Shown: positions 31,046-63,657, numbered from the stretch's first letter. The stretch is DNA of 64,000 bases from Octopus vulgaris (GCA_951406725.2 OX597814.1:206150001-206214000); one strand, 5' to 3'. Numbers and translations: made by a program. Notes: generated by a model not told the origin, from the letters alone.

Positions 31046-31185
<140 letters not shown>

Positions 31186-31929: not shown

Positions 31930-32007
<78 letters not shown>

Positions 32008-33183: not shown

Positions 33184-33262
<79 letters not shown>

Positions 33263-37613: not shown

Positions 37614-37623
37614 AAAACGAAAT

Positions 37624-39833
37624 ATGGCTGCCATGCAGATGACGATAACAACAAGCAGTTCACTTTTCCTTGTGATTACTTTTATTGTCGTTCTAATATC
37701 ACTAAACATAGAAGCGAAGGAACTTGGAAATAACTGTGAAATTAAGATTTCTCCCAATGTCCATAAGATTTTATCTCGTTTAATAAGATCAGACAAAAAG
37801 GTTTTCAATTTCGATGTCCATTTATCCGATAAAAAACTTGATGACCTTCTGAAACCCGTACGACTGGATTATTTCGCAAACGCGAGACAATTTACCTGGA
37901 TTCCAGAGGAACCAGATGGTTTAATAGCGTATAAGAATTTCTATTATGATTTTTCAATTTACTCTTTGAATTTATTAGGAGCTTACATTGCTACTCCAAG
38001 AGTTGATGTCGATATAAATTGTGGGAAAGAAAATATTCAGAGATATGATTTAATACATTTGATTTTCCAGGAATTGAAGAAAATCGCAGTGATCGATACA
38101 TTAAAAATGGGAGAATCTGGTTACATGTGTTTTATTGTAAATTTGTCTCAAGACATGAAGAAGAACAGCCCTGAGTCATTGAAAGCTAACAGAAGATTGG
38201 GTATAAATCGAGAGTTGGTGAAGAACTATTGCTGTAAACTCTATAAAAATGAAAGCTATGTTTATCACTCAAAATCAATTTGTTCGGGAAATATCATGGA
38301 AAATAGTATGTTTCTCAATTATGCAAATATCGTCGGAGCAATTGTGTGGATATTTTTTCCGTTAATCGTTAGTCTTCTTTCACAAGCTAAATTGCCTTCA
38401 TTTCCGCATCAAAACACATTGCCATACAAATCAGAATGGATCAACAAAAACCATAATACTTACAGTTTCTCTCATTTTCTGTCTTGGTTATTTTGTTTCC
38501 ATAATTCCTCTTTCTTTGCCTCAAGACTAAGAAGATTCCTTTCTATTCTATTTTCTCTTTCAGTAATTTTCCTGGATCTTTTGATGCATTACTTCTTTTT
38601 ATATGAAACAGTAGAAATTCTTTACCGAGATGGTATACCATTGGGCTATCGCGCCCTAACATTAGGAATCCCAGAAAGTTATGAGAATACTGATGGCTTT
38701 TTTGGTGGTCCCTTTGTATGGTTAATCTGTTACGTATCTTTCAACTTTATCCTCTTCGTTCTTCCCAGTCGTTTAAGTGAGACTATCGCTTATAATACAT
38801 TACATCGAAGTTCCACTTGCACATTTCTCATTCAAAATATCAGATTATTAGAGAAGTATGGCAGTTTAAATGTTTCTGCACAACAGGATTATGATCTACT
38901 CTATGCAATAATGAAAGCTAATATTTCTACTGCTTTAAACCCAAATTTCTGGTATTTAATAATCCATACTTGGTTTAACCGTATCAAGAAAATTTGGTTA
39001 TATTACTACAGGAGAAATATTTTCTGGAAATTCATTACACTTTGGCTCTTTGTTTCCATTACAATTTTATTTGCTGTATTTTCTGTCTGTGAATTATTTC
39101 TGTGCCTCGTTTATTATGGAATACCAATTGTTTATTTGATTTCAAGTTTACCTTTCAGCTATTCCAATGTTTATATTTTCCCACTCTATAGGAATAATAA
39201 TCATATTTTTGAGATTGTTGCAGTACTTTTTACTATTCTATCGTTTCCATTTTATATATTGTGGGCTCTTTATTCAATCTATATATTTCTTTCAAGTTTC
39301 CAAATTCTTTGCAATTACATATTTACGATAGCTGTTACGGTTCTTGCTAAACCTGATAATGTCGGGGACGTATGGTTTGTTGCCATGTTTTTCGTGTATA
39401 CCGTTGCAATTGCGAAAGCCATTATCAAGCAGAATCAATTAGTTATAGTTCAGTCTATAAAACTCACCAAAACCGTTTGTCCAAGATTTGTTCAGGTAAA
39501 ATATGGAGAGGAATTCATAAATGCCAATTTGTTCAAGACAATTGTTAACCGTCATTTTCCATTGAGATACGAGATTGGTAAATCCATTATAAAACTGTTT
39601 CTAATCGTATCTTTTTCTTTGCTTGCAACAATATAATAAGTCGAGAAGACTTGGACTTATCAGCGTTCACAAGGTTTACTTTGATATTGATGACGTCTAT
39701 GATACCTAAATTTTTGGCAATAATTAATTCTAAATTGAGTTTTTTTACATCCATGACACATACAATTATCGAAACAATAAGTACATTTGAAGATGGCAAT
39801 GCATCACATTCCAGTTTATCAATTTCTTATTAA
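37624..39833 (+). CDS. Uncharacterised multi-pass membrane protein, paralog A (~736 aa if the 1-nt frameshift at ~39612-39616 is repaired)
   Basis: ORF from ATG 37624 is colinear with the 735-aa ORF at 51202. The C-terminus continues in the 39651-39833 frame. Signal peptide, Cys ectodomain, many TM segments, and AATAAA directly after the stop. Confidence 0.85.
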
Positions 39834-40224
39834 ATAAAAATGCTTTGAAATTTTCAGAAGGTATTTTCTGTTCTCTAAATACGTTGTATAATTCGAATAA
39901 AAGAAATCTGTATTGACGTATATAGAAATCACAGAATCACGTACACTTACAATATCCCATTATATACATACATGCATGCATACATACATACATACATACA
40001 TAAATACAGACAGATAGACAGACAAAGAGACAAGCAAACATGTAGGCAGACATGTACACACATATACATAAATGTAAATTAAATGTGTATGTATATATGT
40101 GTATGTGTGTGTATGAGTGTGTGTCCGTGTAATTTGCGACGTTGCATGTGTGTGCGGATGTAACTCCTAAACACGCGCACGCACATGTATAGGAGTTAAA
40201 TGTTTTTATCTGAGGCCGTATATT

Positions 40225-40622
40225 CGTTTCTACTCTAGGTACAAGGACTGAAATTTTGTTGCACAGGGCACGTCGATTAGATCGACCTCAGTACGCAACT
40301 GGTACTTAATTAATCGACCCCGAAAGGATGAAAGGTAAAGTCGACCTCGGCGGAGTTTGAACTCAGAACATAAAGACAGACGAAATACCTATTTCTTTAC
40401 TACCCACAAGGGGCTAAACACAGAGGGGACAAACAAGGACAGACAAACGGAATATGTCGATCATATCGGACCGCAGTGCGTAAGTGGTACTTATTTAATG
40501 GACCCCGAAAGGATGAACGGCAAAGTCGACCTCGGCGGGATTTGAACTAAGAACGTAGCAGCAGACAAAATACCGCAAGGCATTTCGCCCGGTGTGCTAA
40601 CATTTCTGCCAGCTCGCCGCCT
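40225..40622 (-). mobile_element. Dimeric tRNA-derived SINE
   Basis: Two ~185-bp units with gaccccgaaaggatgaa..gtcgacctcggcgg..tttgaact. tRNA head at the right end only. Confidence 0.8.
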
Positions 40623-41014
40623 TTTCTGAAGCCGTATATTGAAAGAAAGACGATTGCAGTGTGAAGAGAATTTAGATATAGCAAAACACAAAAACTGTTT
40701 AACTTCACTTAAATCATAATTATTAACGACAGAAGCAGTATTAGTACCAAAAAACAATCTTTATATCCAACTTAACCTGAATGATTTGTTAGAACACCCA
40801 ATACTGAGTTATTTACCTTGAGAGGACTTCTCATATTGACACATGGGGCGCACATATTCACGTCGTTCGCAAAAGAGAATCGTCTGATACGTTCGGGTAG
40901 ATGTAAACATTGCCTTCTGGTACTAATAATACTTTTGTCGTTAATAATTATTCTTTCACAAGCCTACTGACTATTTGCGACATCAGTGCCTAAGACGTCA
41001 CTGAAATACAACAT

Positions 41015-42081
41015 ATCGGTTGGTATGCGGCTACCGGACGAACTAAACAGCTTGGACAGAAAGGCAAGGAAGTTGTTAACGAGATATGGGATACTCCACC
41101 CAGAAAGTGGAACAGACAGACTTAATGTAGTAAGAAAAAGAAGGGGACGTAAGAAGGCTAGGCTTGTGTAGGATGAAAGATTGCAAAGATAAAGCACTAT
41201 ACAAGAAATCGAAAATGAATGAAACTGAAAATAGGTGGATAAAGAAAAGAATGCATGGGCAATTTCATAGAGATATTGAAAATAAGACAGACAGAGAAAA
41301 AAGATGGCTATGGATGACTAAAAGTGATTTAAAACCGAGAACAGAGACTCTAATCTGTGCTGCCTAAGAGCAAGCATTAAGAACCAATTACATCAAATAC
41401 AGAATAGACAACACTGCAGAAAGTGATAAGTACAGAGTTTGTAGACAAAATGGTGAAACCGTATGGCGTATTACCAGTCAAAGTGCGCCAGTAACCGAGA
41501 AAGGATATAAGAGAATTCACGAAAATAGAGCAAAGATTGTCCATTGGACACTTTGCAACAAGTATAAACTCGACAAAGTAAAACAGTGGTATAAACATAA
41601 ACCCGAAATCATCATCGAAAATGATAATGCAAAGATCCAGTGGGATTTTATGATTGAGTGCGACAATGAGATAGAGGATAGGAAACCAGAAATAGTCTTA
41701 ATTGAGAAAGAAAGGAAACGATGCTGGATCATAAATATAGCGTGCCCAGCTGACAAGAAGTAATGCGATAAAAAAGAAAGAAAAGTCGATAGATGTAACA
41801 GGTTAGCTTGGGAGGTTAAGCTGTTGTGGTCGATGAAAAAGGTGGTAGTAGTACCAATAATTGTTGGAGCCCTGGGAAAAGTGAGTAAAAATCTTGAGAA
41901 ATATATGAAACAAATCGGGCTGCAATAAGGGCGGAGCACTTGTAGAAAACAGCACTGCTTGGAACCGATCGAATATTCCGGATGGTGCTCAAAAAATAAG
42001 GGGTGTTACCTTAGTTCAGTGGTAGTGGACAGCTGACACCGTAGTACATCTCCAGCATTAGAAGCTGTGCAAAGACAACAA

Positions 42082-42082
<1 letters not shown>
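41015..42082 (+). mobile_element. Decayed R4-like LINE 3' part
   Basis: LDRKARKLLTRYG, MHGQFHR, ETLICAA and REL remnants with stops. Followed by (AAT)n. Confidence 0.8.
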
Positions 42083-42116
<34 letters not shown>

Positions 42117-42346
42117 TAATGGTGATGATGATGATGATGATGATGATGACGATGACGATGACGATGGTGGTGGTGGTGGTGGTGGTGATGGTGGTGGTGA
42201 TGATGATGATGATGATGATGAGAAGAAGAAGAAGAAGAAGAAGAAGAAGAAGGAGAAGGAGAAGAAGAAGAAGAAGAAGAAGAAGAAGAAGAAGAAGAAG
42301 AAGAAGAAGAAGAAGAAGAAGAAGAAGAAGAAGAAGAAGAAGAAGA
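42083..42346 (+). repeat. Compound (AAT)(GAT)(GGT)(AAG) microsatellite
   Basis: Direct reading. Confidence 0.95.
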
Positions 42347-44580
42347 ATAGGCCAAACATTGTATGGATAGACTTCAGTTGAAAATCATGCCTCCTCTTTG
42401 ATATGATTGTCTCAATCGACATAAACGTATCTGTCAAGACCTACCAACAACTCAGCAAGTATAAGGATCTTGAAACAGAAACTGGCAAAATGTGGAACCT
42501 CAAGATATTATCACAAACGACACATGAACTTGTCGAAAGCCTAGGTAGATTATAAAAATGCTTTTGATATTCTACAACATAGATGGATTAAGAAATGACT
42601 GGAAATGTATAAAATAGCACCGACTCTGCAAAACCTCTTGTCTGTAAGTATGAGATCATAGAGAATAACACTGACTTTGAACAGTGACAATGAATTTCTC
42701 AATGCTGGAGTTGTAAGAATTTCATGTGGCATTTTCCAGGGTTACTCACTATCACCACTCCTCTTGTGTCTAGCCTTAATACCTCTCTCTAAATTGCTCA
42801 ATGATGTACAATATGGATATAAAATGTTTGATAAAAATATAAATCATCTCTTTTACATGGTTGATTTAAAGTTCTTTTGAAAAACTTACTAACAACTACA
42901 AGGTTTACTAGCAATTGTTAAACAATTCAGTGATGACGTCAGGATTCAATTTGGCTTCGATAGATGTGCAAAAGCTACTTTTATGAAAGGCAAAATGACA
43001 GAAACATCCAACGTTAATCTTCACCAGCAGAATATCATAAAGGAGTTAGAGTCAGCGGAGAGCTAAAAATACTTAGGGATATTTGAAGGTGATGGAATAA
43101 AACATTCAATGATGAGGGAAAGGAACAGAAGAGAATGTTATCGCAGGGTAAAAGCAATACTCAAGACAGAGCTAAATGCAAGAAACAGGATCAAAGCGAT
43201 CAATACTTTAGCCATACCGGTCGGGACTTATAGTTTCAATATCATTAACTGGTCAATCACTGAAATCTGTAATCTTGACAGAAAAATCTGAAAATTGTTG
43301 ACAATGCATAGAATGCACCACACTAAGGAAGATATAGAGCAACTTTAGCTGCCAAGAAAAGAAAGATGCCGTGGACTTTTACAGCTGGAATTAGCAATGA
43401 AAATTGCCACAATTGGCCTCAACACCTACCTGGAAAACTCTGATGACTGGATGTTAAAACTTGTCTTAAAGCATGAAAACAAGAAAGCATCATACTGAGT
43501 AACAAAACAGGCAAAGGATTGTCGAAGTGAATTCCTAGTACAACAAATCCCAGAAACAAGCACAGAAAAAGCTAAGCGTATGAAGACCCGCGCTAAAACT
43601 GCTTTCTTAGATATTCTTACGGATAAATGGCCTCTCAGTGGTAAATACCAAAAGGGAGCTAATAATGCCAATATTGACAAAGCCATTACTCATGAATGGT
43701 TAGTGTCTTCTGGCTTAAAATCAGAAACAGAAGGCTTTATCATAGCAGCCCAAGATCAATGTCTACCTGAAAGGAACTACCAGGCCAACATATTAAAGAA
43801 TAGAAGTAGCCCAACATGTCGTGTATGTAAACAACAAAATGAAACCATTGATCTATGTCCAGTCTTCTTGCGCCTACAGAGTATCTCAACAGGCATAATA
43901 GAGCAGCACAGTATATTCACTGGGTAATTTTCAAAACCTGGACCTGCCCCATGATAAAAACTGATGGGAACACAAACCACCTCCAACACTTGAAAATGAC
44001 CACATCTCACTCCTCAGGAAAGTCACCGTTCAAACTGACAGAAAGATAGATGCGAATAGGCCAGACATCATATTGAAAGACGTCAGACAAAAAATCATGT
44101 TCGGCAATAAACTCACGCGTAGTCACAGTAGTTCGGTATGGCGCTGGAATCATGTTCCAATCGACATATAGGTATGTCATGGCTTACCAGCAACTCAGCA
44201 GGTATAAAGATCTTGAAACAGAAATTGGCAAAATGTGGAACCTCAAGACTAAAACAATACCTGTTGACATAGGTGTCCTAGAAATGATAGCATAATGGGC
44301 TGATTCCTACATAGCTCTGATATCAGGAAACCCCAAAATAGCAGAAATTCAAATAATAGTGCCCATGGGAACAGCCCATATCCTACATAAGGTACTGTCT
44401 ATGTAATCTCAAATTTTAAACAAACTCATAATTTTCTTATGTTTTCTTAAACATTCTCTAGAACAATACTTTGTGCAAAACCAAATATGTGACACCCTAA
44501 GCATAATACTTCAAACTTGTTGTCTCTTGAAATCTCTGGATGAGACTTGGAGTCAACTTGTACAAAGACAAAGCAAAAAT
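42347..44580 (+). mobile_element. Decayed R4/Dong-like LINE, same family as 57528-60831 (extra REL fragment at 42347-42505)
   Basis: CGIFQGYSLSPLL, YMVDLK, ECYRRV and GFIIAAQDQ, with many stops and indels. 3' UTR is homologous to 60610-60831. Confidence 0.88.
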
Positions 44581-44939
44581 ATCTATAAACATCTCAAAGT
44601 TTTAGTAATCATAGAAAGTAATAGAAAAGGCGTACAGATTTTGGGGGAGAGCTGTTAAATTGCCATCCTGTCGTATTTCGTAAATTTATATATCTTAGTT
44701 ATGCTAGGTCCTCCCCAAAATTTAGATTTCTATACATAAATTCGTCCCCACGCTAGAATTTTGGCTAGCTTAGCTGCCTGCTGCCCCTTCGTCTCCTCTC
44801 TCTCGCCTTTACCTTTCCACAGATCATAACCCAACTTTGTTTTCTGTAGTATTTCACTCAAAGGAATATCAGTGGGGGGACACTGTTCTTCTGGAAGATT
44901 CTTCTCCTGATTTTCACCTCTTCGATGAAATAAAGATGT

Positions 44940-46320
<1,381 letters not shown>

Positions 46321-46802
46321 AATAATGATAATACCAATAGGGAGCAAACAAATTTGTAGCCTTAATTCCTGGAATCCTAAAGTAAGTGAATCACAAATGA
46401 CCATACACATAGTGACCTCATATATATTACGTAAATTCCTCTCGATGTTATTGCAGTAATATTCATTCGGCTGTATTATGAAATTTATAAAAGTAAATTT
46501 TAGGTATATTTATTTATAACACACGGACATCAATTTGTTTACAACTGCAAATTCGGCTTTAGGTGAGGTTATATTTTCGCATAATTATGTCAGCAAATAT
46601 TACACGATTTACTAGAAATAATTATGCGATTATCAGAAATAGCAACATCAGTCAACACTTTAATCATTTTAATTACATCAGCAATCATGGGAATGCATCA
46701 ATTAGGAAATTACGAAAACTGGAACTTATATAGGATACAAGATAAAAATTTGGGTTAAATGGATACAAAATATTTCTAAATACAAAAAATTAATAATAAT
46801 CC

Positions 46803-46978
46803 TTTCTACTGGAAGTACAAGGCTTCAAATTAGTACCAGTGCGTAACTGGTACTAATTTTATCATGCCCGAAAGGCAAAGTCAACCTCGGTGGAATGTGA
46901 ACTCAGAACGTAACAGTAAATGAAATAACGCTAAGCATTTTGCCCGGCGTGCTAACGATTCTGCTAGCTCGCCGCCTT
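46803..46978 (-). mobile_element. Deleted SINE copy
   Basis: Same head and core as the 40225 family. Confidence 0.7.
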
Positions 46979-47276
46979 AATAATACAGGTAATTATTAAT
47001 AATAATGATAATAATAATAATAATAATTAGTTAACGATAAGCATCCTTGTCCCAAAACATTCTGATTACTGCTTCATTTCACATTCTGATTCCTGCTTCT
47101 CACATATACCAAAGTCAGTGTCCAATGTAACTTTTCATCTTATAAAAGCTTATGTCGATCCCGGTTCAACTGCGCAGAGTGTTACATTTTATAAATCTAC
47201 TAATCTGAATGTTTCAAGGTAAAATTACCTTTTCGCACTATCCATTGCTTTCACTCTCCGCTTCATTAGCACCCTG

Positions 47277-47339
<63 letters not shown>

Positions 47340-47494
47340 TTGAAACAAAATCACCTTTTATCAATTAAAAATGAACAGTTAAATTACACCAACTCGAAAA
47401 ATACATATAATATATGTAATTTTCTAGATGATGTAATTTAATTGTTAATTTTTTATTTTGAATTGATAAAAGGTGTTTTGTTTTCTAATTTATA

Positions 47495-47530
<36 letters not shown>

Positions 47531-47717
47531 TTTGTGAAATTTGATTTAGTATTTCTAAATTGAGTTTTTCCCTGTAAGTTAGGAATAATATTCCCTCAAA
47601 TTATTGTTATTATTATTATTATTATTATTATTGTTATTATTATTATTATATATACATATAAGTGTATATGTGTATATATATAACATATATATATATGTAT
47701 GTGTGTATGTATGTATG

Positions 47718-47752
<35 letters not shown>

Positions 47753-48104
47753 ATATATATATATGCATGCATGTATGTATATATGTATGTATGTATGTAT
47801 ATAAAGGAATACAAAAAGTGGGACAAGGACGCAAAACATCGAGACAGATGATACGAAAAAGAGACAAGAATAAAAGGACGGGTCATCTCAAGTGACATAC
47901 CAGGCGTAAGAAAATACCATAATTAATAATTAAGAATGCTACAAGTATCACCAGCACGCTAGAAATGGCAGTCAGAAGACAACTATAACCACAAAACAAT
48001 TATTTCGTTATTGGGACGGCGACTCATTACCCCGTTTTCAATTAATATTTGTCAGAGAAATTTTTTGGTTGTAGTCGTATTGCTCTTGGCACTCTTAATT
48101 ATTC

Positions 48105-48678
48105 TTTTCTACTCTAGGCACAAAGACCGAAAGTTGGGGGAGGCGGCCAGTGGATTAGATTGACCCCACCATGCAACTGGTACTTAATTCATAGACCCTG
48201 AAAGAATGAAATGTGAAGTCGACCTCGGAGGAATTTGAACTCAGAACGTAACGCAGACGAAATACCTATTTCTTTACTACCCACAAGGGGCTAAACATAG
48301 AGGAGACAAACAAGGACAGACAGACGGATTAAGTCGATTACATCGACCTCCAGTGCGTAACTGGTACTTATTTAATCGACCCCGAAAGGACGGAAGGCAA
48401 AGTCGACCTCGGCGGAATTTGAACTCAGAACATAACGGCAGAAGAAATACCTATTTCTTTACTACCCACAAGGGGCTAAACACAATGAGAACAAACAAGG
48501 TCAAACGGATTAATTCGATTATATCGACCTCCAGTGCGTAACTGGTACTTATTTAATCGACCCCCGAAAGGATGAAAGGCAAAGTCGACCTCGGCGGAAT
48601 TTGAACTCAGAAACGTAACGGCGGACGAAATACCGCTAAGCATTTCGTCCGGCGTGCTAACGTTTCTGCCAGCTCGCA
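48105..48678 (-). mobile_element. Trimeric tRNA-derived SINE
   Basis: Three ~182-bp units with cores at ~48195, 48378 and 48559. A single head at the right end. Confidence 0.82.
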
Positions 48679-48849
48679 GCCTAAGCACCCTAAATTATTA
48701 ATGTATATGTGCGTGTGCGCGCACCGTTCATTTTTGATATCATTTACCCCTGACATTGAATTTTGTCAACATTTAATCATTTAAACATCGTTCTCTGCTT
48801 CGTAATTTTAAACCCTGTTAAAATCGCTTTTTTTTTCTATACATTTTTC

Positions 48850-49166
48850 TATATTCTATATTTTTTCTATATATTTTTTATGTATTTTTATATAATTTTT
48901 ATGACGAAAAATGCGAGCGATGTATAAGTACGCAGGCAAGCAGAGTTATAACACAGTAATTTCCCTTTGTATAACGGTATTTTTTCATAGCGTTTTCAAA
49001 TAGCCAGATAACCGAAGAGATGGTGTTGTGGATTTCCACTTCGGCATCTGAAACTCAGAGTTTTATCTTGACTATTGAGTAATGTAACATATTATTGTAT
49101 AGATAAATTTCCTCTATTTACATAATATTGAGGTTTCTTTCTTTCTTTTGTTATCTTACCGTTTTA

Positions 49167-49170
<4 letters not shown>
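48850..49170 (+). mobile_element. Penelope-like 3' end with hammerhead at 49007-49067 (U4C)
   Basis: Near-identical inverted match to 34025-34270. gauaa-CCGAAGA-gaug..cauc(u)-GAAA-cucagaGUU-uuauc. Confidence 0.75.
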
Positions 49171-49222
<52 letters not shown>

Positions 49223-49227
49223 TATAT

Positions 49228-49380
49228 TCGACGGGCTTCTTTCTGTTTCCGTCTACCAAATCCACTCAGAAGACTTTGGTCGGCCCGAGGCTATAGTAGA
49301 AGATACTTGCCCATGGTGCCACGAAGTGGGACTGAATCTGGAACCATGTTGTTGGGAAGCAAGCTTCTTAACACACAGCC
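49228..49380 (-). mobile_element. SINE 5' half
   Basis: Reverse-complement homolog of 23969-24131. Confidence 0.7.
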
Positions 49381-49395
49381 AGACACACACAGCCA

Positions 49396-49444
<49 letters not shown>

Positions 49445-49765
49445 TCACACGCACACACATACTTACATATATGATAGTAGCCGACTCGATTTCAAGTAGA
49501 GCCATATCTTGACTTAATTATGTCCTAGAATATCATCAATGAGCGGCACGAATGTGATCTTTGAGGCCTGCCAAAGACTTGCATGCTTTTTAACAATTAG
49601 CGCAAGAAAACTTGGTAATTGTATAGTTTACAGCTCCATGAACTTTACTGTGCCTCTTCAAGCCACTTTTCAATCTGCATACTTTATGACAGAGGATGCA
49701 TTCGAAATCTTTTGTCCATCTATAATCAATGCGCGGTTGTGCCATGTGGGATTTCATGTGGCTCT

Positions 49766-50460
49766 TTAACCCAGCCTTACTAAGGCAAATCTTTCCACAT
49801 TCATCCCATGTATGATGACCACGTTCATCAATGTTTGTTGAATATCATTCCTGTCACTTTGTTTCATCTTTCTTTTGATCTTGCCATGCTCCATTCTCTT
49901 TCTTTCAAATTCATTTTTGCCTTCATACGAAATTTTTTTCCATTTTTCTTGGCAATGCGCTAAATCTTCACAGTTGTCAATTGGAACGTTTATCTTATTC
50001 AATCCTGACTTCAGACAATCTCTGTACCACGTCTTTGGTTTGTGGGACGGACGCTTACCTGTCACCAATTCTCCGTAAAAAAGCTGTTTAGGCATTCTGT
50101 TGGTTGTCATTCTCACTAAGTGTCCATTCCATCTCAATCTGTACTGCAATAGCAAAGCTTCAATACCGAAGCATTTCCCTCTTGCAAGCCTCTTCATCGT
50201 CACTCACAAACATTTTCCAGATGATCCTCAAAATCCTTCTCAGACATTGTTGATGAAAACGTTCCATAAGTTTTAAGTGCTTACGATACACAGTCCAGGT
50301 TTCGCAAGCATTCAACAAAGAGGTTAAGATACATGTATTGTATACCTTAATCTTTGTCGCATGTCTAGACCATAGGCGGTCTTCTAATTTGCCGAAAGCA
50401 AAACTGAGTTTCTGAATGCGTAGTGACACTTCATCATCAAGATTCGCTGATGTGTTTAAT
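49766..50460 (-). mobile_element. RTE-clade LINE relic (RT C-terminus)
   Basis: TKIKVYNTCILTSLLNACETWT...FHQQCLRRIL and LRWNGHLVRM...MPKQLFYGEL..GKR. Confidence 0.88.
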
Positions 50461-50804
50461 GTATATCATAATGTTTTACCCCATTCGTGACAGAGATAGG
50501 CTCCGACATAAATACACGTTATGTTATTTTTGCATTATTTCAAATGGAATACCCACAAATCTTATTGATTGAAATCCCAATAACTGAACTATTATTAATT
50601 TATATTATTATATATTTTGTATATTTCTATATAAATATATATATATAAATATATTATAATCATGACGCCACTGCACGATATGGTGATGTTGAATACACGG
50701 TATATATTCTCCAGATTAAAATGCATATAATGTTAAAGGGTGTGTACCTGGTCGATTTGGAAATTCGTTTTCCCACTTTATTCAAATATATACTTACACA
50801 CACA

Positions 50805-50889
<85 letters not shown>

Positions 50890-50945
50890 ATATATATCGT
50901 TAGCCACTGCACACATTTTTTTCTCTCCTTGTTTTTTCTATGTCC

Positions 50946-50981
50946 CTTCCTGTAGAAGAGCGTAGGCTCGAAACGTACAAA
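50946..50981 (+). ncRNA. Minimal hammerhead-like motif with variant core
   Basis: CUGUAGA-a-gagc guag gcuc-GAAA-cGUA. Confidence 0.5.
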
Positions 50982-51169
50982 TCTTTTTCTATTCCTGACC
51001 GTTATACTAATACATGTGTTTGCTTTGTACACCACCTGTCCGGACATTAATATTTATATTTAATACTAAAAAAAAAAGCAAAAAGTTTACTTTCAGGTTT
51101 ATAATGAATATTTTCTGTTTGAAATATCTATGGAATAATGAACCTAAAACGAATCTTCATTATCTTATG

Positions 51170-51191
51170 TTCTTTTCTGTTATTATTACAG
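51170..51191 (+). promoter_or_regulatory. Splice acceptor of a 5'-UTR intron
   Basis: ttcttttctgttattattacAG ends 10 nt before ATG 51202. Confidence 0.7.
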
Positions 51192-51201
51192 ATAATTAAA
51201 T

Positions 51202-53409
51202 ATGGCTGCCATGCAGACGACAACAACAGCAACCAGTTCTCTTATTGTTTCAATCATTCTTATTATCACACTGACATCACTAAACATCGAAGCGAAGGAA
51301 CTCGACAATGATTGCCAAATTAAAATCCCTCCCAATGTCAGTGAGATTTTATCTCGTTTAGTAAAATTGGAAAAAAATGTTTTCAATTTTGAATTCCATT
51401 TATCAAACAAGACACTTGATGACCTTCTTAATCCTGTACCATTGGATTATTTTGCAAACGCGAGACACTTTACCTGGATCCCAGATGAACCAGACGGTTT
51501 AATAGCATATAAAAATTTCTACTATGATTTTTCAATTTACTCTTTGAATTTGTTAGATGTCTATATTGCTTATCCAAGAATTAATATCGATATAAAATGT
51601 AGAAAACAAAATATTCACAGACGCGATATAATATATTTGATTTTCAAGGAATTGAAGAAACTCGTATTTATCGATAAATTGCAAATGGGAGAATCTGGAT
51701 ACATGTGTTTTTTTGTAAATTTGTCTCAAGACATGAAGAAGAACAGCCCTCACGCATATGAAGCTTGCAGAAGAATTGGTATAAATCGGGAGATAGTGAA
51801 GAACTATTGCTGTAAACTCTATAAAAACGAAAGTAATCTTTATCACCCCAAATCTATTTGTTTAGGAAATAATATTGAAAATAGTATGTTTATCAATTAT
51901 GAAAATATTGTTGGAACAGTTTTGTGGATATTTTTCCCATTGCTTATTAGTTTTGTTTCAAAAGCCAAATTACCTTCATATTACTATCGAAACACAATGC
52001 CATACGAATCAGAATGGATCAATGGAAAACATAGTATTTACAGTTTCTCTCATTTTCTGTCTTGCTTATTTTGTTTCCATTATTCTTCTTTCTTTGCCTC
52101 AAGACTAAGAAGATTCTTTTGCATTATGTTTTTTCCTTTAGTAATTCTCCTGGATCTTTTGATGTATTACTTCTTTTTATATGAAACAACAAAAATATTT
52201 ATACAAGACCGCATACCATTAGGTTTTCGCGCCCTAATATTAGGAATTCCAGAAAGTTATGAAAATACAGGTGGCTTCCTCGGGGGTCCCTTTTTGTGGT
52301 TCATCGGCTATATATTTTTTAGTTTTATTCTCTTCGTTCTTCCCAGTCGTTTAAGTGAGACTATCGCTTATAATACATTACATCAAAGATCCACTTGCAC
52401 GTTTCTCATTCAAAATAAGAGATTATTAGAGAAGTATGGCAGCTTAAATATTTCTACAGAACAGGATTATGATCTACTCTATGCAATAATGAAAGCTAAT
52501 ATTTCTACTGCTTTAAACCCAAATTTCTGGCATTTAATAGTTTATACTTGGATTAACCGTATCAAGAAAATTTGGTTATATTACTACAACAGAAATATTT
52601 TCTGGAAATTCCTATTGCTTTGGTTTTTTATTGCGATCACAATTTTATTTGCTATATTTTCTGTCTGTGAATTATTTATGTGCCTCGTTTATTACGGAAT
52701 CCCAATTGTTTACTGGATTTTAACTTTACCATTAAGTTATTCCAAAGTTTATATCTTCCCACTCTATCTGAGTCCCAATTATATTTTCAAGATAGTTGCT
52801 GTACCTTTAACATTTCTATCGTTGCCATTTTATATATCATGGGCGATTTGTTCAATCTACGTATTTCTTGTAAGTTTTCAAATCTTAAGCAACTACATAT
52901 TCACCATAGCTACTGTAGTACTTGCTAAACCCGATTGTGTAGGTTACATATGGTTTCTTGCCATGTTTTTCGTTTATGGCATTGCAATTGTGAACGCCTT
53001 TCTAAAGCAGTATCAGTCAATAATATTTCAGTCTATAAAATTCACTAAAATGTTCCGTCCAAATTTAGTCCAGGAAAAATACGGAGAGGAATTCATAAAT
53101 GCTAAATTGCTCAAGACAATTGTTAACCATCATTTTCCTTTGAGATACGAGATTGGTAAATCCATTGTGAAACTGTTTCTAATCGTATCTTTCTTCTTTG
53201 CTTGCAACAATATAATAAATCGAAATGATCTCGACTTATCAGTTTTCACAAAGATTACTTTGATATTGATGACTTCTATGATACCTAAATTATTGTCAAT
53301 AATTAATATTAAATTTGATTTTGCCATTTCTCTCTCAGACAAACTTATTGATACAATTAATATATTCGAAGAAGAGAATGCGCCACAGACCAGTGTGTTA
53401 ATTTACTAA
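51202..53409 (+). CDS. Uncharacterised multi-pass membrane protein, paralog B (735 aa, single coding exon)
   Basis: Intact 2208-nt ORF in AT-rich DNA. Signal peptide (~1-31), ~200-aa ectodomain with 6 Cys shared with paralog A, ~9-11 hydrophobic segments, AATAAA at ~53422. Confidence 0.92.
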   Translation: MAAMQTTTTATSSLIVSIILIITLTSLNIEAKELDNDCQIKIPPNVSEILSRLVKLEKNVFNFEFHLSNKTLDDLLNPVPLDYFANARHFTWIPDEPDGLIAYKNFYYDFSIYSLNLLDVYIAYPRINIDIKCRKQNIHRRDIIYLIFKELKKLVFIDKLQMGESGYMCFFVNLSQDMKKNSPHAYEACRRIGINREIVKNYCCKLYKNESNLYHPKSICLGNNIENSMFINYENIVGTVLWIFFPLLISFVSKAKLPSYYYRNTMPYESEWINGKHSIYSFSHFLSCLFCFHYSSFFASRLRRFFCIMFFPLVILLDLLMYYFFLYETTKIFIQDRIPLGFRALILGIPESYENTGGFLGGPFLWFIGYIFFSFILFVLPSRLSETIAYNTLHQRSTCTFLIQNKRLLEKYGSLNISTEQDYDLLYAIMKANISTALNPNFWHLIVYTWINRIKKIWLYYYNRNIFWKFLLLWFFIAITILFAIFSVCELFMCLVYYGIPIVYWILTLPLSYSKVYIFPLYLSPNYIFKIVAVPLTFLSLPFYISWAICSIYVFLVSFQILSNYIFTIATVVLAKPDCVGYIWFLAMFFVYGIAIVNAFLKQYQSIIFQSIKFTKMFRPNLVQEKYGEEFINAKLLKTIVNHHFPLRYEIGKSIVKLFLIVSFFFACNNIINRNDLDLSVFTKITLILMTSMIPKLLSIINIKFDFAISLSDKLIDTINIFEEENAPQTSVLIY

Positions 53410-53559
53410 TATTTGTGGTAAAATAAAACTGTTTAAACCTTTTGAGTAATTTGTTCGAATTATTTAATCACATTGTATAATTTTAATAATAGTGATCTGC
53501 ACTAGTCTATACGAAAAACGGATATAAATACCTATAAAGAATCACACAGGCTCGTCCAT

Positions 53560-54360
53560 ATCGCTGAATCCCTATTTGCGGATAAATTTGCACCTAATGG
53601 TACACAAGGGAAATCACGTGCAGATCGTGGTCGTTCGCTTTGTAGAAGAATCAAGGCTTTTAGACTGACCAACAACCTTGGGAAAACGGAGGTTCTAGCC
53701 CAAGCAGCCCCGAACACTATTTTATCCTAGCCAAGCATCACCATTGGGGGAGTTCAGCTGAAGTGTGTGGAGAATTACGAGTACCTTGGCAGTTTAATCT
53801 CCCCCGATGGATCACTTGACATAGAAATCTCACCCAAAATCCACAAGGCCAGCCAGGTATTTAGCAGACTGAAACTGAAAGTACTCCAGCAGAAAGGCAT
53901 CAGACTGTCAACAAAGTTTAAGGTCTACGAGGTTGTAGTTGTCTCTAAACTGCTCTTTCGGTGAGAAGCATAGAACCCATGCCGCCGGCACGTCAAACAG
54001 CCAGGACATTTTCGCACAAGGGCACTACGCAGGACCATAGGCATTCGCTGATAGGTCAGGATGGCAAACCACGAAGTGCTGCAAGGAACTCGCTCATGAA
54101 GCTTTGAGTCAATACTACTGAAGGCACAGCGACGCTGCACTGGCCATGTTATCAGATTAATTGCTTCGGTTGAGATTAAATAATATAAATTGTCCTATTG
54201 TAAAAAGAATAAATGTATATGGCGAGCTCACGTACAGTTCACACAAACAAAGAAGGCCTTAACTGAAGTATAAGGACACTCTGAAAAGCAAGCACAAACG
54301 GAGCAGCATTAGTCCATAGACAACATAGCGTGGAATCTCTCACTTCACGAGCAGCAGCTG
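53560..54360 (+). mobile_element. RTE-clade LINE relic
   Basis: VENYEYLGSLISPDGSLDIEI...KASQVFSRL...TKFKVY, with stops. Confidence 0.8.
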
Positions 54361-54453
54361 TCTTCAAGGTATACATATATACATACATACATACACACAC
54401 ACATACATACATACACACACACACATATATATATGCATACATACATACATACA

Positions 54454-54514
<61 letters not shown>

Positions 54515-54519
<5 letters not shown>

Positions 54520-54700
54520 CTTGATCACCTTGACCGACCAGTCCGTCAGGCGTCCATTTGACACTGCTGGTCACAGCACGCTGTCCACTCCTCTCTGGAT
54601 CGCGCCTTTCTCATCCACATGATCCCAATCGTCCTCCTGAAATCGTAACTCCACCGTCGTGGAGGTCTTCCGGGTGGTCTTTTCCGTTCACGCGTGTACC
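54515..54700 (-). mobile_element. RTE-like LINE extreme 3' end with (caaggtgat)n tail
   Basis: Minus frame WYTRERKRPPGRPPRRW...W, then a short tandem tail. Confidence 0.75.
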
Positions 54701-54782
54701 ATACAACAAGCACACACATATTTTATATATATATATATATATATATGCAAATTCGCATATATGTTATTTTGAAATGTATATG

Positions 54783-54838
<56 letters not shown>

Positions 54839-54967
54839 ATATGTGTGTGCGTGTGGAACAAAAAAGTGAGTAGATTTGAAGATATGAACATGAGTGGAAG
54901 TGAGGCCTCCATCGGGTGTTATTTTTGTTCAGGAAGAAAAACCCGACGCGTCGGACAGGTGGAAAGA

Positions 54968-56190
<1,223 letters not shown>

Positions 56191-56221
56191 ATGATGATGA
56201 TGATGATAATCATTTCTGTCG

Positions 56222-57090
56222 AGATATGGGATACACCACCCAAAAAGTGATACAGACAGACTGTATGTACCAAGAAAAAGAGGGAGAAGAGGACTGATTG
56301 GATATAAACACAGCACTAGAGAAAATAAGAAAACAACATAGCATGGTAGGTAAAAAATGCCACAGAACCGCTATTATAAGAAGTAAGAAGGTCAGACTTG
56401 TGTAGGATGGAAGATTGCAAAGATAAATTATTGTACAAGCACTTGAGAATGAATGTAACTGAAAATAGGTGGATAAAGAAAAGAATGAATGAAAAATTTC
56501 ATAGAGATGTTGAAGATAAGACAGACAGAGAAAAACGATGGCTATGGATGACTAAATGTGATTTAAAACCAGAAACGGAGGTCCTAATCTGTGCTGCCTA
56601 AGATCAAGCATTAAGAACCAATTATATCAAATATACAGAATAGACAACACATCAGAAAGTGATAAGTACAGAGTTTGTAGACAAAATGGTGAAACCGTAT
56701 GGCATATTACCAGTCAGTGTACGCCACTAGCCCGGAAAGAATATAAGGGACATCATGACAATGTGGCAAGTATTGTCCATGGAGAGAAATGGAGAGAAAA
56801 ATGACTTCATGTCCAATACCCTGCAAGGCTTGACAGAGAGAAGTAAGCCTAAGTAAAATCCAACAATGGCTCAAAAGCTCTGTACTAAAAGCCGAAACGG
56901 TAGGACTGATTCTCGCTGCAGAAGACCAATGCCTAACTACAAACGATTATAAAACAAAATACTGAAAACAGGCCTCAACCAAATGCTGAATGTGCAATCA
57001 ACACAGATACGGTTGACCACATCATCTCGGACTGCCCAATACTTGCCATGTCTGAATATATATACAGACATGACAAAGTAAACCCACAAA
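56222..57090 (+). mobile_element. R4-like LINE fragments (56222-56780 resembles 41080-41550)
   Basis: NRWIKKRM..FHRD...ETEVLICAA and TVDHIISDCP..RHD. Confidence 0.75.
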
Positions 57091-57445
57091 AGTTACGGGT
57101 ACCTGAACAACAAGAAAGAGCCCTTCTTTTGTTTACAGGTCCACGCTCAGAATTGGTCCTTTCACACTGGTCATAATTCCACCTTTCACCCACCTTTCAA
57201 CAAATATATCACAAGGCAATACTTCGTTCTCCACCCTCAGTTTCCTTTTCAAGTGAAACTTGAAAAAGTTTATGTGGGCTTGGCTAATATGGGCTTAAAG
57301 TTAATGTGGGATTAGACCTTTCAAACGGATCCACCATACTACCTCTTTAGTTACAGCCACTAGACAAATAAAACTTGCTTTCCTCTCCTGGTCAAGAGAG
57401 GGAGGGGGGTAATCTTCACAATGGATTCAGCTGATAGCCGGATCC

Positions 57446-57527
<82 letters not shown>

Positions 57528-57529
<2 letters not shown>

Positions 57530-60500
57530 GCATCAAATAATGAGCATCAAATAGATAAAGAAAGTCACACAAATATTGACCCAACAGAACTACATGAGCT
57601 AAAAAATCAAATCATGATTGAATGGCTGAAAATTAAAGAAACCAGCATGGATGAGCGTGATACACTTCCTAAAATCCGCAACTCTAACCAAAACATGAAA
57701 ATAATTGGTAAAATCCGGCTTGCACTTAAGGATATAATTTCAGTTAATGATGTTGATATCACAAACCTCAACCACCTATACTATGCATCCGCGAAAATCT
57801 CAACGATCCTATGTGGTGTAAAGATTAGAAAACGGCAACAGTCCCACAAAAAGCCTTCTTGGCAAGAGCGTCTGCAACAACAAATTAAAATATTTAGATC
57901 TGACATTGAATATTTGAAAAACCTTAAGGCTCACAAGACTACCAAACCTACAAAAACCCAAAAATTACTGAAAAAATACAATATGAAAACTATACTTGAT
58001 ATTGATGCCACCATAGAAACCATCAAACAAAAGGTATCTGCCAAAGCTGCCCGCATAGCGAGGTATGAAAAGCGTGTTAGATTTTTCAAGGACAACAACA
58101 TGTTCAAAAATAACACCAAGAATTTTTACAGGAAGATAGGAAAAACAGCGTTTACTGCAGGGTCTGTACCATCAAAAGAAGAAGTGCAGAGATTTTGGAA
58201 TAAAATCTGGGCAGAAGAAAAAACACACAACGAAAAGGCCCCTGGATTGACAGAATATCTACAGAACTGGACCCCTTAGAAGAGCAAAAGTGGGAGGGTG
58301 TCAAGGTAGAAGATATAAGATCTGCTCTCAGGAGGTCAAGCAAATGGAAGTCTCCAGGAAAGGATAAAATTCCTAACTTCTGGCTGAATGCCTTCCCAGA
58401 GAGCCATGAACTGCTAACAGAACTGTACAATGATGTTTTGCAACACCCTAGTAGGATGCCTCCTTGGCTAGTTAATGGGTTAACATTCCTGCTTCCAAAA
58501 AGTGAAGAAACAAATGAACCAAAAAACTATAGACCCATAACCTGCTTAACAACTATGTACAAAACACTAACATCTGTCCTGACGGAATATACCTATAGTT
58601 TTTTAACAGACAGCAGCATATTCCCTAATGAACAGAAAGGATGTAAACGTGGATCCTACGGCTGTAAAGACCAACTACTCATCAATAAGATGATCTTAGA
58701 AGATTGTCACAAACGACACAAAAACTTATCAATAGCCTGGATAGACTATAAAAAGGCTTTTGATAGCCTACCACATAGCTGGATTAGGAAATGCCTTGAA
58801 ATGTATAAGATAGCACCAACTCTGCGAAACTTCTTGACTGTAAGTATGAGATCATGGAGAACCACACTAACTCTGAACAGTGACAGTGAATCCCTAAATG
58901 CTGGTGATGTAAAAATTTCGTGTGGCATTTTCCAGGGTGACTCACTGTCACCACTCCTCTTTTGTTTATCCTTAATACCTCTCTCAAAGCTGCTCAATGA
59001 CGCGCAGTACGGGTATAAAATGTTTGATAAAAATATAAATCATCTCGTTTACATGGATGATTTAAAGCTTTTTGCAAAAAATGATCAACAACTCAAGGGC
59101 TTACTAGCGATAGTCAAACAATTCAGTGACGACATCAGAATGCAATTCGGCCTCGATAAATGTGCAAAGGCTACCTTTATCAAAGGAAAAATGACAGAAA
59201 CATCTAACGTTAACCTTGACCAACAGAATGTCATAAAAGAACTAGACCCAGCGGAGAGCTACAAGTACCTAGGGGTAATTGAAGGGAACGGAATAAGGCA
59301 TTCAGAGATGAAGGAAAGGATCAGGAGAGAATGCTATCGAAGAGTGAGAGCAATACTCAAGACAGAGCTGAATGCAAGAAACAGGATCGAAGCAATCAAT
59401 GCATTAGCTATACCAGTCGTGACTTACAGTTTCAATATTGTTAACTGGTCAATTACTGAAATATGTCAGCTCGACAGAAAAATAAGGAAACTGTTGACAA
59501 TGCATAGAATGCACCACCCTAAGGCAGATACAGAACGACTCTATCTGCCAAGAAAAGAGGGAGGCCGTGGTCTTTTGCAACTGGCAATAACAATGAAGAT
59601 TGCTACAATTGGCCTAGACACCTACCTGAAAAACTCTGAGGACTGGATGTTAAAACTTGTCTCAAAACATGAAAACAAGAAAGCATCATACTCAGTCACA
59701 AAACAGGCAAAGGAATATCTAAGTGAATTCCGAATACAACCAATTTCGGAATTAGAGATAGACATACAAGAAACAAGCACAGAAAAAGCTAGGCGCATGA
59801 AAACCCGTGCCAAAACTGCGGCCTTAGATATTCTGAATAATAAATGGCAAGAAAAACCTCTCTATGGCAAATACCCAAAGAGAGCGAATAATGCAGATAT
59901 CGACAAAGCCCTGACCCATCAATGGCTAATGGCCTCTGGCTTAAAATCTGAAACAGAGGGGTTTATCATAGCAGCTCAAGATCAATGCCTACCAACAAGA
60001 AACTACCAGGCCAACATATTAAAGATCAGAAGCAGTCCAACGTGTCGTGTATGCAAGCAACAAAATGAAACCATTGACCATGTGGTCTCCAAGTGCAGTC
60101 TTCTAGCGCCTACAGAGTATCTCAACAGGCACGATAGAGCTGCACAATATATTCACTGGGTAATCTGTAAAAACCTGGATTTGCCCCATGAAAAAAACTG
60201 GTGGGAACACAAACCACCCCCAGTGCTTGAAAATGACCACATCTCACTCCTCTGGAACTTCACCATTCAAACTGACAGGAAGATAGATGCAAATAGGCCA
60301 GACATCATATTGAAAGACTTCAAACAAAGAACATGCCTCCTCATTGATATGACTGTCCCAATCGATATAAACGTATCTGTCAGGACCTACCAAAAACTGA
60401 GCAAATATAAAGATCTTGAAATAGAAATCAGCAAAATGTGGAACCTGAAGACTAAAACAATACCTGTTGTCATAGGTGCCCTGGGAATGATAGCAAAAGG

Positions 60501-60831
60501 GGCTGATAGCTACCTAACTCAGATACCAGGAAACCCAAAAATGGCAGAAGTTCAAAAGATAGTGCTCATGGGAACTGCTCATATCCTACGCAAAATACTC
60601 TCTGTGTAACCTCAAGGTTTAAAACAACCATAATTTTCGGTTTAAAAAAAAAAAAAAAAAAAAAAAAAACATTTTTTTTTTAGACATTCATTAGTACAAC
60701 ATCCCCACCCCCCAAATATATGGCACACTAGGCATAACAACAACATGAACTTTCAACCCTGTTGTCTCTTGAGGTCTCTGGGTGAGACTTGGAGCCAACT
60801 TGTACAAATATAAAGCAAAAGTCAAACATAG
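57528..60831 (+). mobile_element. Young, 5'-truncated R4/Dong-like LINE with RT + CCHC + REL ORF (57614-60609, one frameshift at C run 58239-58242)
   Basis: WKSPGKD, NYRPITCL, DYKKAFDS, GIFQGDSLSP, YMDD, CRVC..H..C, RHD, RPDI and KYKDL. (AAT)n on both sides. Confidence 0.95.
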
Positions 60832-61641
60832 AATAATAATAATAATAACACAGAGCTGCGCTCGGTGGTGACATGAAGGACAATATTAAAGGATGTGTTA
60901 TAGCACAAAGAAAAATTACAAAATCATGTGAAAATCATGTGGGTGTAATATCAATCAAGGGGAGATACTACCACATTAAAGGATATAACAGAGGATATAT
61001 GTTTGAAAGAGAAATGAATAATAAATAAATAAATAAATAGAATCCTCAATAGCGAGGAAGTCCACTAAGAGTAATCCCGGATTACTTTGCCATTTCTAAG
61101 GCATGGGTAAGTGCCCTCTTCCAGTTGCTTTCCTCTTGCTTAGAAAATCCTATTCAGAGTAGATCCATTCAGTCTCACCAGTCTTGCCACTGTCGACCAC
61201 CTTTGGATAGACTCACTGGAAGGCAGTGCCTCCATCTCTACCCAATAAGACCGAACCTGAGCCAACGTCTCTCTAAAAGAAACGGAGAAACTTTCAAAAT
61301 ACAAAGATCTGGAAATACACACAAATTAAATTAAGATATCTTTCTCTTTACTTTGGCTTTCTTTCTTCCTCCTATCTTTAATTTATCCTAGGTACTCTCC
61401 CAGCTACCCCCTGCTCTAAGCCTATTATAATGAAATATCAACTACGCTCCACTCCAGCCTCTCTAAGAACCAGCCCAGCAGACTCCTATCTCAACCAGAT
61501 CAATGACCTCAGATATCATATTACACCCTTTCACAAACTATCTTCTTAACCTCAACGGCCAGCTTTATTATTCTTTCTCCCATTTCATAGTTGGCCTCTG
61601 CTTTATTCTTGACATTTTCTGTTGTCTGTAAAATTACGTTT

Positions 61642-61725
61642 CATCTGATGATTACGGGTTTTTTTGTAAGTGAGTAATGTTCTCATTCTTCTATTAAAAA
61701 AATGCGTAAGAAACAGCTGTAATAG
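61642..61725 (+). ncRNA. Type I hammerhead ribozyme with canonical core
   Basis: CUGAUGA (61645-51), helix II uuacg/cguaa, GAAA (61710-13), palindromic acagcugu and a GUA site. Helix I is weak. Confidence 0.7.
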
Positions 61726-61745
61726 TCTGTTATTATTCATTTGAT

Positions 61746-62113
61746 GGTTAGGGCAGCGGACTCGCGGTCGTAGGGTCGCGGTTTCGATTCCCAGACCGGG
61801 CGTTGTGAGTGTTTATTGAGCGAAAACACCTAAAGCTCCACGAGGCTCCGGCAGGGATGGTGGTGATCCCTGCTGTACTCTTTCACCACAACTCTCTCTC
61901 ACTCTTACTTCCTGTTTCTGTTGTACCTGTATTTCAAAGGGCCGTCCTTGTCACTCTCTGTGTCACGCTGAATATCCCCGAGAACTGCGTTAATGGGTAC
62001 GCGTGTCTGTGGAGTGCTCAGCCACTTACACGTTAATTTCACGAGCAGGCTGTTCCGTTGATTCGGATCAACCGGAACCCTCGTCGTCGTAACCGACGGA
62101 GTGCTTCCATTCC
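61746..62113 (+). mobile_element. tRNA-derived SINE
   Basis: B box ggtttcgattcc, (ttcca)n tail, and 11-bp TSD attcatttgat at 61735-61745 and 62114-62124. Confidence 0.88.
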
Positions 62114-62176
62114 ATTCATTTGATTATAATACAAGGGGACTATAACACACCAAGGGGACTTGTTGGACAGCCTAGA

Positions 62177-62328
62177 TTTCATCTGCCGCTACATTCTGAG
62201 TTCAAATTCCACTGTGGTCGACTTTGCCTTTCATTCTTTCGGCGTCGATAAATTAAGTACCAGTTAAGTACTGGGGTCTATGTAATCACTTGTTCCTTCC
62301 CCAAAAATTTCAAGCCTATAGTAGAAAA
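62177..62328 (+). mobile_element. 5'-truncated SINE (40225 family)
   Basis: gagttcaaattcc...gcctttcattctttcggcgtcgataaattaagtaccag. Confidence 0.7.
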
Positions 62329-63255
62329 TGATTTCCCAATCTCGTATCTCAAAGAAAAATCATGGCTAAAAATTGCTTTGAACAAATTGACACGTATGAC
62401 TTCCTCTCTTTAATATGCCTGGACAAAGTTTGGACAAATATTTTTGGCTAAATTTATGGATTAAACTATTATAGTGTCATACTGTTTCTGAACAACTTTT
62501 GTAATCGGCAATACCATAGACAAAAAACATGGCAACACACCGTATATCGCCTGCAATACCAGGTTTAGCAAGCATTGCGAAAGATGCATTGAATGTATAA
62601 ATGCACATGACTTCAAAACTTATTAGAAATATAAAGATTGAAGCATATCCTCGAAATATATAAAACGGCAATGATACAAAAGTTGAAAATACAGTGATAA
62701 TCTTTAAAATATAATTGAAAAAATATGACCGCTGAAATAACTTGGTGTCAAACATAAAATCAGGTAAAGAATTAAGGTTCTGTAATAAAAGAGGCACAGA
62801 AATAATACAGCAGAAAAAACTGTAACGATAATAAAAAACAAAGTAGTAAAGTGAATTGGTTTGACATATTTTCTCGTAGTAATATAACCAAATTTTCTTT
62901 AATCCACTTATGAATTGTTAAGTGCCAGAAATTTTGAAATAAAGCAGTAGAAATATTAGCTTTCATTATTGCATAGAGTAGAAATCCTGTTGTGTAGAAA
63001 CATTTAAACTGCCATACTTCTCGAATAATCTCTTATTTTGAATGAGAAATGTGAAAGTGGATCTTTGATGTAATGTATTATAAGCGATACTCTCACTTAA
63101 ACGACTGGGAAGAACGAAGAGGATAAAGTTGAAAAATATGTAGAAGTGAACCACAAAAAGGGATACCTTTTCATAACTTTCTGGGATTCCTAATATTAAG
63201 GTGCAATAACCCAATGGTATGCGGTCTTGTACAAATATTTTTGTCGTTTCATATA
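62329..63255 (-). pseudogene. Decayed paralog C of the multi-pass membrane protein family
   Basis: Frameshifted peptides YETTKIFVQDRIPLG, FVLPSRLSESIAYNTLHQRS, MKANISTAL, LAKP...AMFFVYGIA and LRYEIGKS. Both ends abut SINEs. Confidence 0.9.
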
Positions 63256-63256
63256 T

Positions 63257-63657
63257 ATTTCTTTATTTCCCACAAGGGGCTAAACATAAAGGGGACAAAC
63301 AAGGACAGACAAACGAATTAAGTCGATTACATCGGCCCCAGTGCATAACTGGTACTTTGTTTATCGACCCCGAAAGGATGAAGGGCAAAGTCGACCTCGG
63401 CGGAATTTGAACTCAGAACGTAACGACAGAAGAAATACCTATTTCTTTACTACCCACAAGGAGCTAAACACAGAGGACAAACAAGGACAGACAAACGGAT
63501 TAAGTCGATTATATCGACTCAAGTGTGTTACTGGTACTCATTTAATCAACCCCGAGAGGATGAAAGGCAAAGTCGACCTCGGCGGAATTTGAACTCAGAA
63601 CGTAGCCTCAGACGAAATACCTCTAAGAATTTCGCCTGGCGCGCTAACGTTTTTGCT
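63257..63657 (-). mobile_element. Multimeric SINE (two cores)
   Basis: Same units as 48105-48678. Confidence 0.8.

Follow-up and report, generated by a model that had tools for sequence, protein, structure and literature searches.

The stretch of DNA analysed here, 64,000 nucleotides of the Octopus vulgaris assembly (GCA_951406725.2 OX597814.1:206150001-206214000; hereafter the window), contains, from a family of membrane proteins, an intact gene, a second gene with a frameshift, a gene fragment and two remnants of intron ends (Table 1). The window is AT-rich and microsatellite-rich animal DNA, and its non-repeat long open reading frames (ORFs) are pieces of long interspersed nuclear elements (LINEs) and two related membrane-protein ORFs, which we call paralogs A and B. 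The initial annotation had described two full-length paralogs and a decayed third copy. Paralog B is indeed full-length, but paralog A as assembled is not; the third copy, C, is decayed as described, with 14 gap openings as well as stops, but covers only part of the protein, and its 5′ half was not found within the next 8 kb. Paralogs A and B are 73.6% identical across 664 amino acids. The assembled A is missing the last hydrophobic segment, and its final ~70 amino acids lie in another frame. Two intact duplicates of 97% identity, L009 and L010, have one more base than A in the run of T at ~39611, and this extra T is present in contigs of all four public runs (at all depth in X16, at most of it in X15 and X17, and at part of it in X18). 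Since the stretch with the extra T is common to the paralogs, an assembly error and a private null allele are both possible for A.

Table 1. Members and remnants of the family in the window, in window coordinates.
Feature	Position	Strand	Remarks
Paralog B, coding exon	51192..53409	+	acceptor-like site ends at 51191; ATG at 51202; intact ORF of 735 amino acids
Paralog B, likely signal peptide (residues 1-31, hydrophobic 9-27)	51202..51294	+	hydropathy alone
Paralog B, predicted alpha/beta ectodomain (residues 32-232)	51295..51897	+	six conserved Cys and N-glycosylation sequons
Paralog B, helical membrane domain (residues 233-701)	51898..53304	+	ten hydrophobic segments
Paralog A, coding exon	37614..39636	+	acceptor-like site ends at 37613; ATG at 37624; ORF of 670 amino acids as assembled
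Paralog A, out-of-frame tail	39612..39833	+	62% identity to B residues 664-734
Copy C, decayed fragment	62329..63256	-	corresponds to B residues 326-654; 182-bp tandem repeat truncates the 5′ side
Remnant 1	20071..20293	-	95% identical to the end of the intron preceding paralog A
Remnant 2	21558..21780	-	second piece of the same kind as remnant 1

The region of the window that holds B and C has an inverted duplicate of 97-99% identity ~0.9 Mb distant. In remnant 1 a TAA microsatellite occupies the place where the acceptor and coding exon would come next. At two other loci, L015 and L029, a (CTAT)n microsatellite is expanded upstream of the acceptor, at the same intron position as the TAA switch in the remnants. 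A pyrimidine tract followed by CAG lies directly upstream of the coding sequence at 30 of 30 loci inspected, with the ATG 10 bases downstream of the CAG at 28 of them. The presence of the tract and CAG at every locus indicates that the coding region is one exon, as had been proposed, behind a likely intron in the 5′ untranslated region.

Sequencing runs give a weak hint that paralog B is represented by a spliced transcript. The run types are guesses; three of the runs were guessed to be RNA and none is recorded as RNA. Contigs of these three runs cover 12, 12 and 10 of the 12 bins of ORF B, and one contig of 240 bases, 119 letters of which disagree with the sequence upstream, matches no further 5′ than 51190, where the acceptor is predicted. 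The unique upstream sequence at 49452-50809 (7 bins) has zero depth in 7, 6 and 5 bins of the three runs, while a large run covers 7 of 7.

Protein architecture and predicted fold

The initial annotation gave each copy a signal peptide ending in NIEA and an ectodomain with six shared Cys, including a vicinal pair. In both A and B a hydrophobic N-terminal stretch precedes NIEA, so that the likely signal, assigned by hydropathy only, and the ectodomain hold for these two, but copy C has neither. The ectodomain Cys common to A and B are residues 38, 133, 169, 203, 204 and 220, and all six are conserved at 89-100% in an alignment of 120 sequences. Although Cys203 and Cys204 are adjacent, a vicinal disulfide is improbable: Cys204 and Cys220 are both present in 99 sequences and both missing in 9, with 1 and 0 sequences having a single one, and the loss of Cys204 together with Cys220 indicates that the adjacent pair is probably not bonded to itself. 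The two sequons noted as shared, NLS173 and NES209, are present in A and B. Sequons are concentrated in the N-terminal domain (mean 4.6 per protein, against at most 0.5 in each of the other loops), as would be expected if this domain were extracellular. Ten hydrophobic segments follow the ectodomain in both alignments, within the 9-11 originally estimated.

The residues that are invariant or nearly so are R301, R304, GGP361-363, P381, FW442-443, R453, E490, P501, Y592, Y604, P646 and P695. Positions 557, 560 and 564 lie on one face of a long helix; they are largely polar in the deep family (77% of sequences at 557 and 87% at 564) and are among those that differ most between octopus paralogs. 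Residue 684 is His or Gln in 74% of the deep family and Lys or Arg in 24 of 24 octopus ORFs.

As the initial annotation had suggested, paralog B was modelled as a monomer with AlphaFold2 and compared with solved folds using Foldseek; the result was a confident model and no confident match. A first model from octopus-only sequences had a predicted local distance difference test score (pLDDT) of 46 and was discarded. The model of residues 32-735 obtained with the 120-sequence alignment has a pLDDT of 88.1 and a predicted template modelling score of 0.86, with all five models above 85, and predicts a six-Cys alpha/beta ectodomain placed on a helical domain. The ectodomain would be glycosylated and held by disulfide bonds. 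Segments 6 and 7 are modelled as one helix of 49 residues, so nine membrane crossings would be as likely as ten. The low-confidence loop at 261-267 is the site of tandem-repeat insertions of ~80-220 amino acids in three paralogs on C5, as might be expected of a flexible cytosolic loop. These three, L033, L034 and L035 (C5, 16.36-16.49 Mb), are intact paralogs of 938, 914 and 794 amino acids in which the loop that follows the first membrane helix carries in-frame tandem repeats of 24 residues and the loop after the third helix looks shortened.

The statement that the proteins carry no recognised family signature was borne out by a copy of Pfam that contained no PF28478 model (see below). No Pfam family was found for A or B; 38 members gave no significant match, three of them having single weak ones (expect value (E) 0.02-0.09), and among 59 members (58 of the 120 aligned sequences and the distant protein P0215) five had weak unrelated matches below the cut-off. 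Solved chains gave no match by sequence, the 120-sequence profile returning lipase noise at E 2.4 or worse. The ESM Atlas yielded no usable match for B or P0008, which proves neither absence nor novelty. The fold searches used the whole 704-residue model against the PDB and viral libraries and barely tested the ectodomain. Foldseek found nothing in these libraries at E<=0.001, the best row being TRPV6 (E 0.65, TM-score 0.12, root-mean-square deviation (rmsd) 19), and with a structural aligner TRP channels gave only local three-helix matches. A wide run of the structural aligner found none of 48,161 chains at Z>=8, nor any of 337 in a further set; its best rows are three-helix matches of 70-90 residues. 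SIDT2 is the top row (Z 7.9, rmsd 2.3, 73 residues), a place it shares with designed bundles and unrelated proteins. The best rows for seven-transmembrane bundles (Z 6.2-6.5, rmsd 6.6-7.7, ~150 residues) are in the range of common helical arrangements. Judged by these searches of solved structures, the fold of the family is probably new.

Several named families were compared with the proteins. The features of Cys-loop receptors that could be tested are lacking: there is no conserved Cys pair 14 apart that could form the C-x13-C loop and no Pfam ligand-binding domain, and both alignments have ten hydrophobic segments rather than four transmembrane helices. No Pfam 7tm family was found among the 38 and 59 members scanned, which sets aside a G-protein-coupled receptor by sequence. 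Insect OR/GR channels have seven helices and a cytosolic N-terminus, whereas the present proteins have ten hydrophobic segments and, behind a likely signal peptide, an N-terminal domain that is rich in sequons and Cys-bonded. UniRef automatically names two members, P0008 and P0009, 'Receptor for retinol uptake STRA6', but neither Pfam, where the STRA6 family is RBP_receptor, nor the solved chains gave a sequence match to STRA6, and STRA6 is not among the fold matches listed for the model, searched whole and not by domain. STRA6 is similar to the family in size and in number of membrane helices but is without a large Cys-rich N-terminal ectodomain. SID-1 family proteins (SIDT1, SIDT2) have an ectodomain on a multi-pass domain; their match to the model comprises one three-helix bundle at 8-11% identity, and homology is unsupported.

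Relatives, duplication and selection

The initial annotation called the family an orphan, which is correct with respect to names and known families but not with respect to relatives. Word-index searches returned 19-29 proteins, of which almost all belong to Octopus sinensis, O. bimaculoides, O. vulgaris and Argonauta, and reached two non-octopod members. All of these matches are named uncharacterised except for the two automatic STRA6 labels and one gelsolin-like fused model. The latter, P0019, has gelsolin-like domains fused to part of a family member and is likely an annotation join of neighbouring genes. A full profile search recovered 131 clusters at 50% identity, 113 of them at E<=1e-10 and most of 600-1000 amino acids. 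Organism names were present on 9 of the 30 clusters looked up: Mytilus (3), Ostrea, Haliotis, Owenia (2), Lingula and Tubulanus. These nine bivalve, gastropod, annelid, brachiopod and nemertean clusters are all uncharacterised or unnamed products. Judged by these sequence matches, the family is not restricted to octopus but is at least lophotrochozoan, with full-length relatives in four phyla. In a quick tree of 105 sequences the octopods form one branch.

P0215 aligns with the family profile over 641 columns (hhalign 99.3%) and has a precomputed match to PF28478, which is not listed for the octopus members; PF28478 may thus describe part of the family. P0215 may also resemble a multi-copy family of stony corals. 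The literature searched gave no description of the family: 12 LOC identifiers, 6 accessions and PF28478 had no match, and topic searches returned no paper on it as judged by title or the start of the abstract. Squid gene arrays that lack known relatives are mentioned in PMC9068888, whose Supplementary Table 4 may include relatives of the family.

The proposal of a clustered family evolving by birth and death is supported by the genome of O. vulgaris. Searches with B and its C-terminal part found 56 merged loci in six clusters, both counts being lower bounds: the 743 kb surrounding the window contain 31 loci and a stretch of 239 kb on C5 a further 12, and four smaller clusters elsewhere on C1 have 4, 4, 3 and 2. 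A strict first look that used the distant member P0026 as query added no locus outside these clusters. Among the first 30 loci, 24 have open frames of at least 725 amino acids, and the frame of one of these, L018, is out of register with the start codon of the family, which leaves 23 intact; a further 3 are intact among the next 17. In total 26 of the 47 loci examined are intact and 21 are broken, mostly by a single frameshift, and some of the single-frameshift loci are perhaps assembly errors.

It was also considered that the copies might be transposon cargo or a neutrally amplified sequence. The copies are indeed surrounded by LINEs, short repeats and microsatellites, and there are recent segmental duplicates of 97-99% identity. 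The similarity of older paralogs, however, extends only ~150 bp beyond the ORF on the upstream side and ~100 bp on the downstream side, and no shared element ends were found when four query loci were compared with 30 loci over 1.5-kb flanks, which points to gene duplication rather than transposon cargo. Together with a ratio of nonsynonymous to synonymous substitution (dN/dS) of ~0.5 and full-length relatives in four phyla, this largely refutes the cargo explanation, which we now regard as barely credible.

The selection tests used 24 long ORFs, L018 included. The family is under purifying selection with gene conversion among paralogs. Pairwise dN/dS is 0.45 overall and 0.43 in the ectodomain, compared with 0.515 under a one-ratio model. 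Allowing classes above 1 in a grid mixture raised twice the log-likelihood by 61, with ~10% of sites near 2 and a posterior >0.9 at 15 of 735 sites, including 231, at the start of the first transmembrane helix, and 557, 560 and 564 of the polar helix face.

Candidate functions

Our preferred reading, which we hold tentatively and somewhat short of an even chance, is that the family is a repertoire of ligand-detecting, probably chemosensory receptors whose specificity would be set where ectodomain and membrane meet and on the polar helix face; every functional step of it is something we infer. PMC11526382 describes tandem clusters, intronless coding sequences and birth-and-death evolution as typical of chemoreceptor families, including the octopus chemotactile receptors, and the genomic behaviour of the present family, which has all three features, is like theirs. 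Family members would act as cell-surface receptors for outside molecules. Ligands would bind at the ectodomain-membrane junction and the face formed by 557, 560 and 564, and because the chemistry of this face differs among paralogs each copy would be specific in its own way. The signal would then be relayed, through ion flow or a cytosolic partner, by the invariant core (E490, R301/R304, GGP and the prolines).

The closest comparison is with the cephalopod chemotactile receptors, Cys-loop proteins derived from nicotinic receptors. According to PMC11526382, these too are octopus-expanded, tandem and intronless in their coding sequence, with positively selected sites. In both, an extracellular domain stands upon a membrane domain. 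In contrast, no sequence similarity was found between them, the present family has ten hydrophobic segments where the receptors have four, and its predicted ectodomain is alpha/beta whereas theirs is a beta sandwich. There are ~56 loci here, compared with up to 26 receptors reported for O. bimaculoides. A bolder form of the receptor reading would make the family ancient ligand-gated receptor-channels of unsolved fold, whose octopus expansion would be a second chemosensory repertoire, outnumbering the chemotactile receptors, and whose selectivity for ligands or ions would be tuned at the polar intramembrane helix face; we consider this rather unlikely.

Several points weigh against a receptor repertoire. 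Variation is no greater in the ectodomain than elsewhere in the protein (its dN/dS is given above, and 3 of the 15 flagged sites fall in it), unlike in a classic repertoire that binds through its ectodomain. Gene conversion is strong: a statistic like the pairwise homoplasy index is 0.203 compared with 0.261 +/- 0.005, with 0 of 1000 permutations as low. Strong recombination can mimic positive selection, so the site test is suggestive only. Birth-and-death evolution is, according to PMC11526382, expected of all multigene families. No pore or G-protein motif was recognised in the proteins. Finally, the polar, variable intramembrane face would fit a transporter equally well.

The last point leads to the alternative that the proteins are uptake transporters or uptake receptors, in which a carrier or solute bound by the ectodomain would be moved on by the membrane domain, and the substrate would vary from one paralog to another. 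The ten hydrophobic segments, helices of up to 49 residues and a conserved intramembrane Glu are in keeping with such a role, as is the automatic STRA6 label on two homologs, although the label is without support here. A transporter is nevertheless doubtful in our estimation, as the 38 and 59 members scanned gave no significant Pfam match and the solved chains nothing better than E 2.4, and dozens of recent copies with many pseudogenes are less usual for transporters. Less probable again is a role as immune or self/non-self recognition receptors diversified via duplication and gene conversion. The mosaic paralogs and many broken copies would suit such receptors, as would the several divergent subfamilies in filter-feeding bivalves; however, the members scanned have no known immune domain, the diversified part is not the ectodomain, and the cytosolic tail is short (~35 amino acids). 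A membrane-embedded enzyme, for example one modifying lipids or glycans, with an accessory luminal domain is improbable. It could account for the invariant polar and aromatic residues within the membrane or close to it (E490, Y592, Y604 and R453) and for the prevalent His or Gln at 684 in the deep family, but the octopus clade has Lys or Arg at that position in all its ORFs, no catalytic or metal-binding set is recognisable, and a core enzyme is not expected to show such expansion.

With a confidently modelled 700-residue membrane protein, no solved-structure match, a presence in at least four phyla and ~56 octopus loci, the family is a defined target for further work. If it is truly sensory, as we tentatively prefer, a receptor class would be added to cephalopod and mollusc chemosensation; if its members are transporters or immune receptors, it would still be a new membrane-protein family. 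The one-exon ORFs and the variable positions 231, 557, 560 and 564 should ease expression and ligand screens.

Repeats of the window

A 12/24/36/49/73-bp AT-rich satellite alternating with AAT tracts occupies 3113-7815 (~4.7 kb) and precedes a degenerate AAT microsatellite of 9.6 kb (7823-17424). Two tandem 3′ fragments of a LINE, at 17707-18267 and 18492-19622 (both +), each adjoin AAT repeats. A tandem duplication of ~4.7 kb with 91-94% identity (24308-28613 and 29028-33258) is without a family ORF. The LINE to which these fragments are related lies at 57530-60669 (+), with RVT_1 and zf-RVT domains in two overlapping ORFs, an (AAT)n start and a poly(A) end; it is missing from the 97-99% duplicate (L032), and is thus likely younger than the duplication. 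Its position in TAA repeats is reminiscent of R4/Dong elements. A repeat of 182-184 bp is present at 40221-40622, 48100-48682 and 63256-63656, one of its arrays cutting copy C, and is very abundant in every run examined, including those guessed to be RNA.

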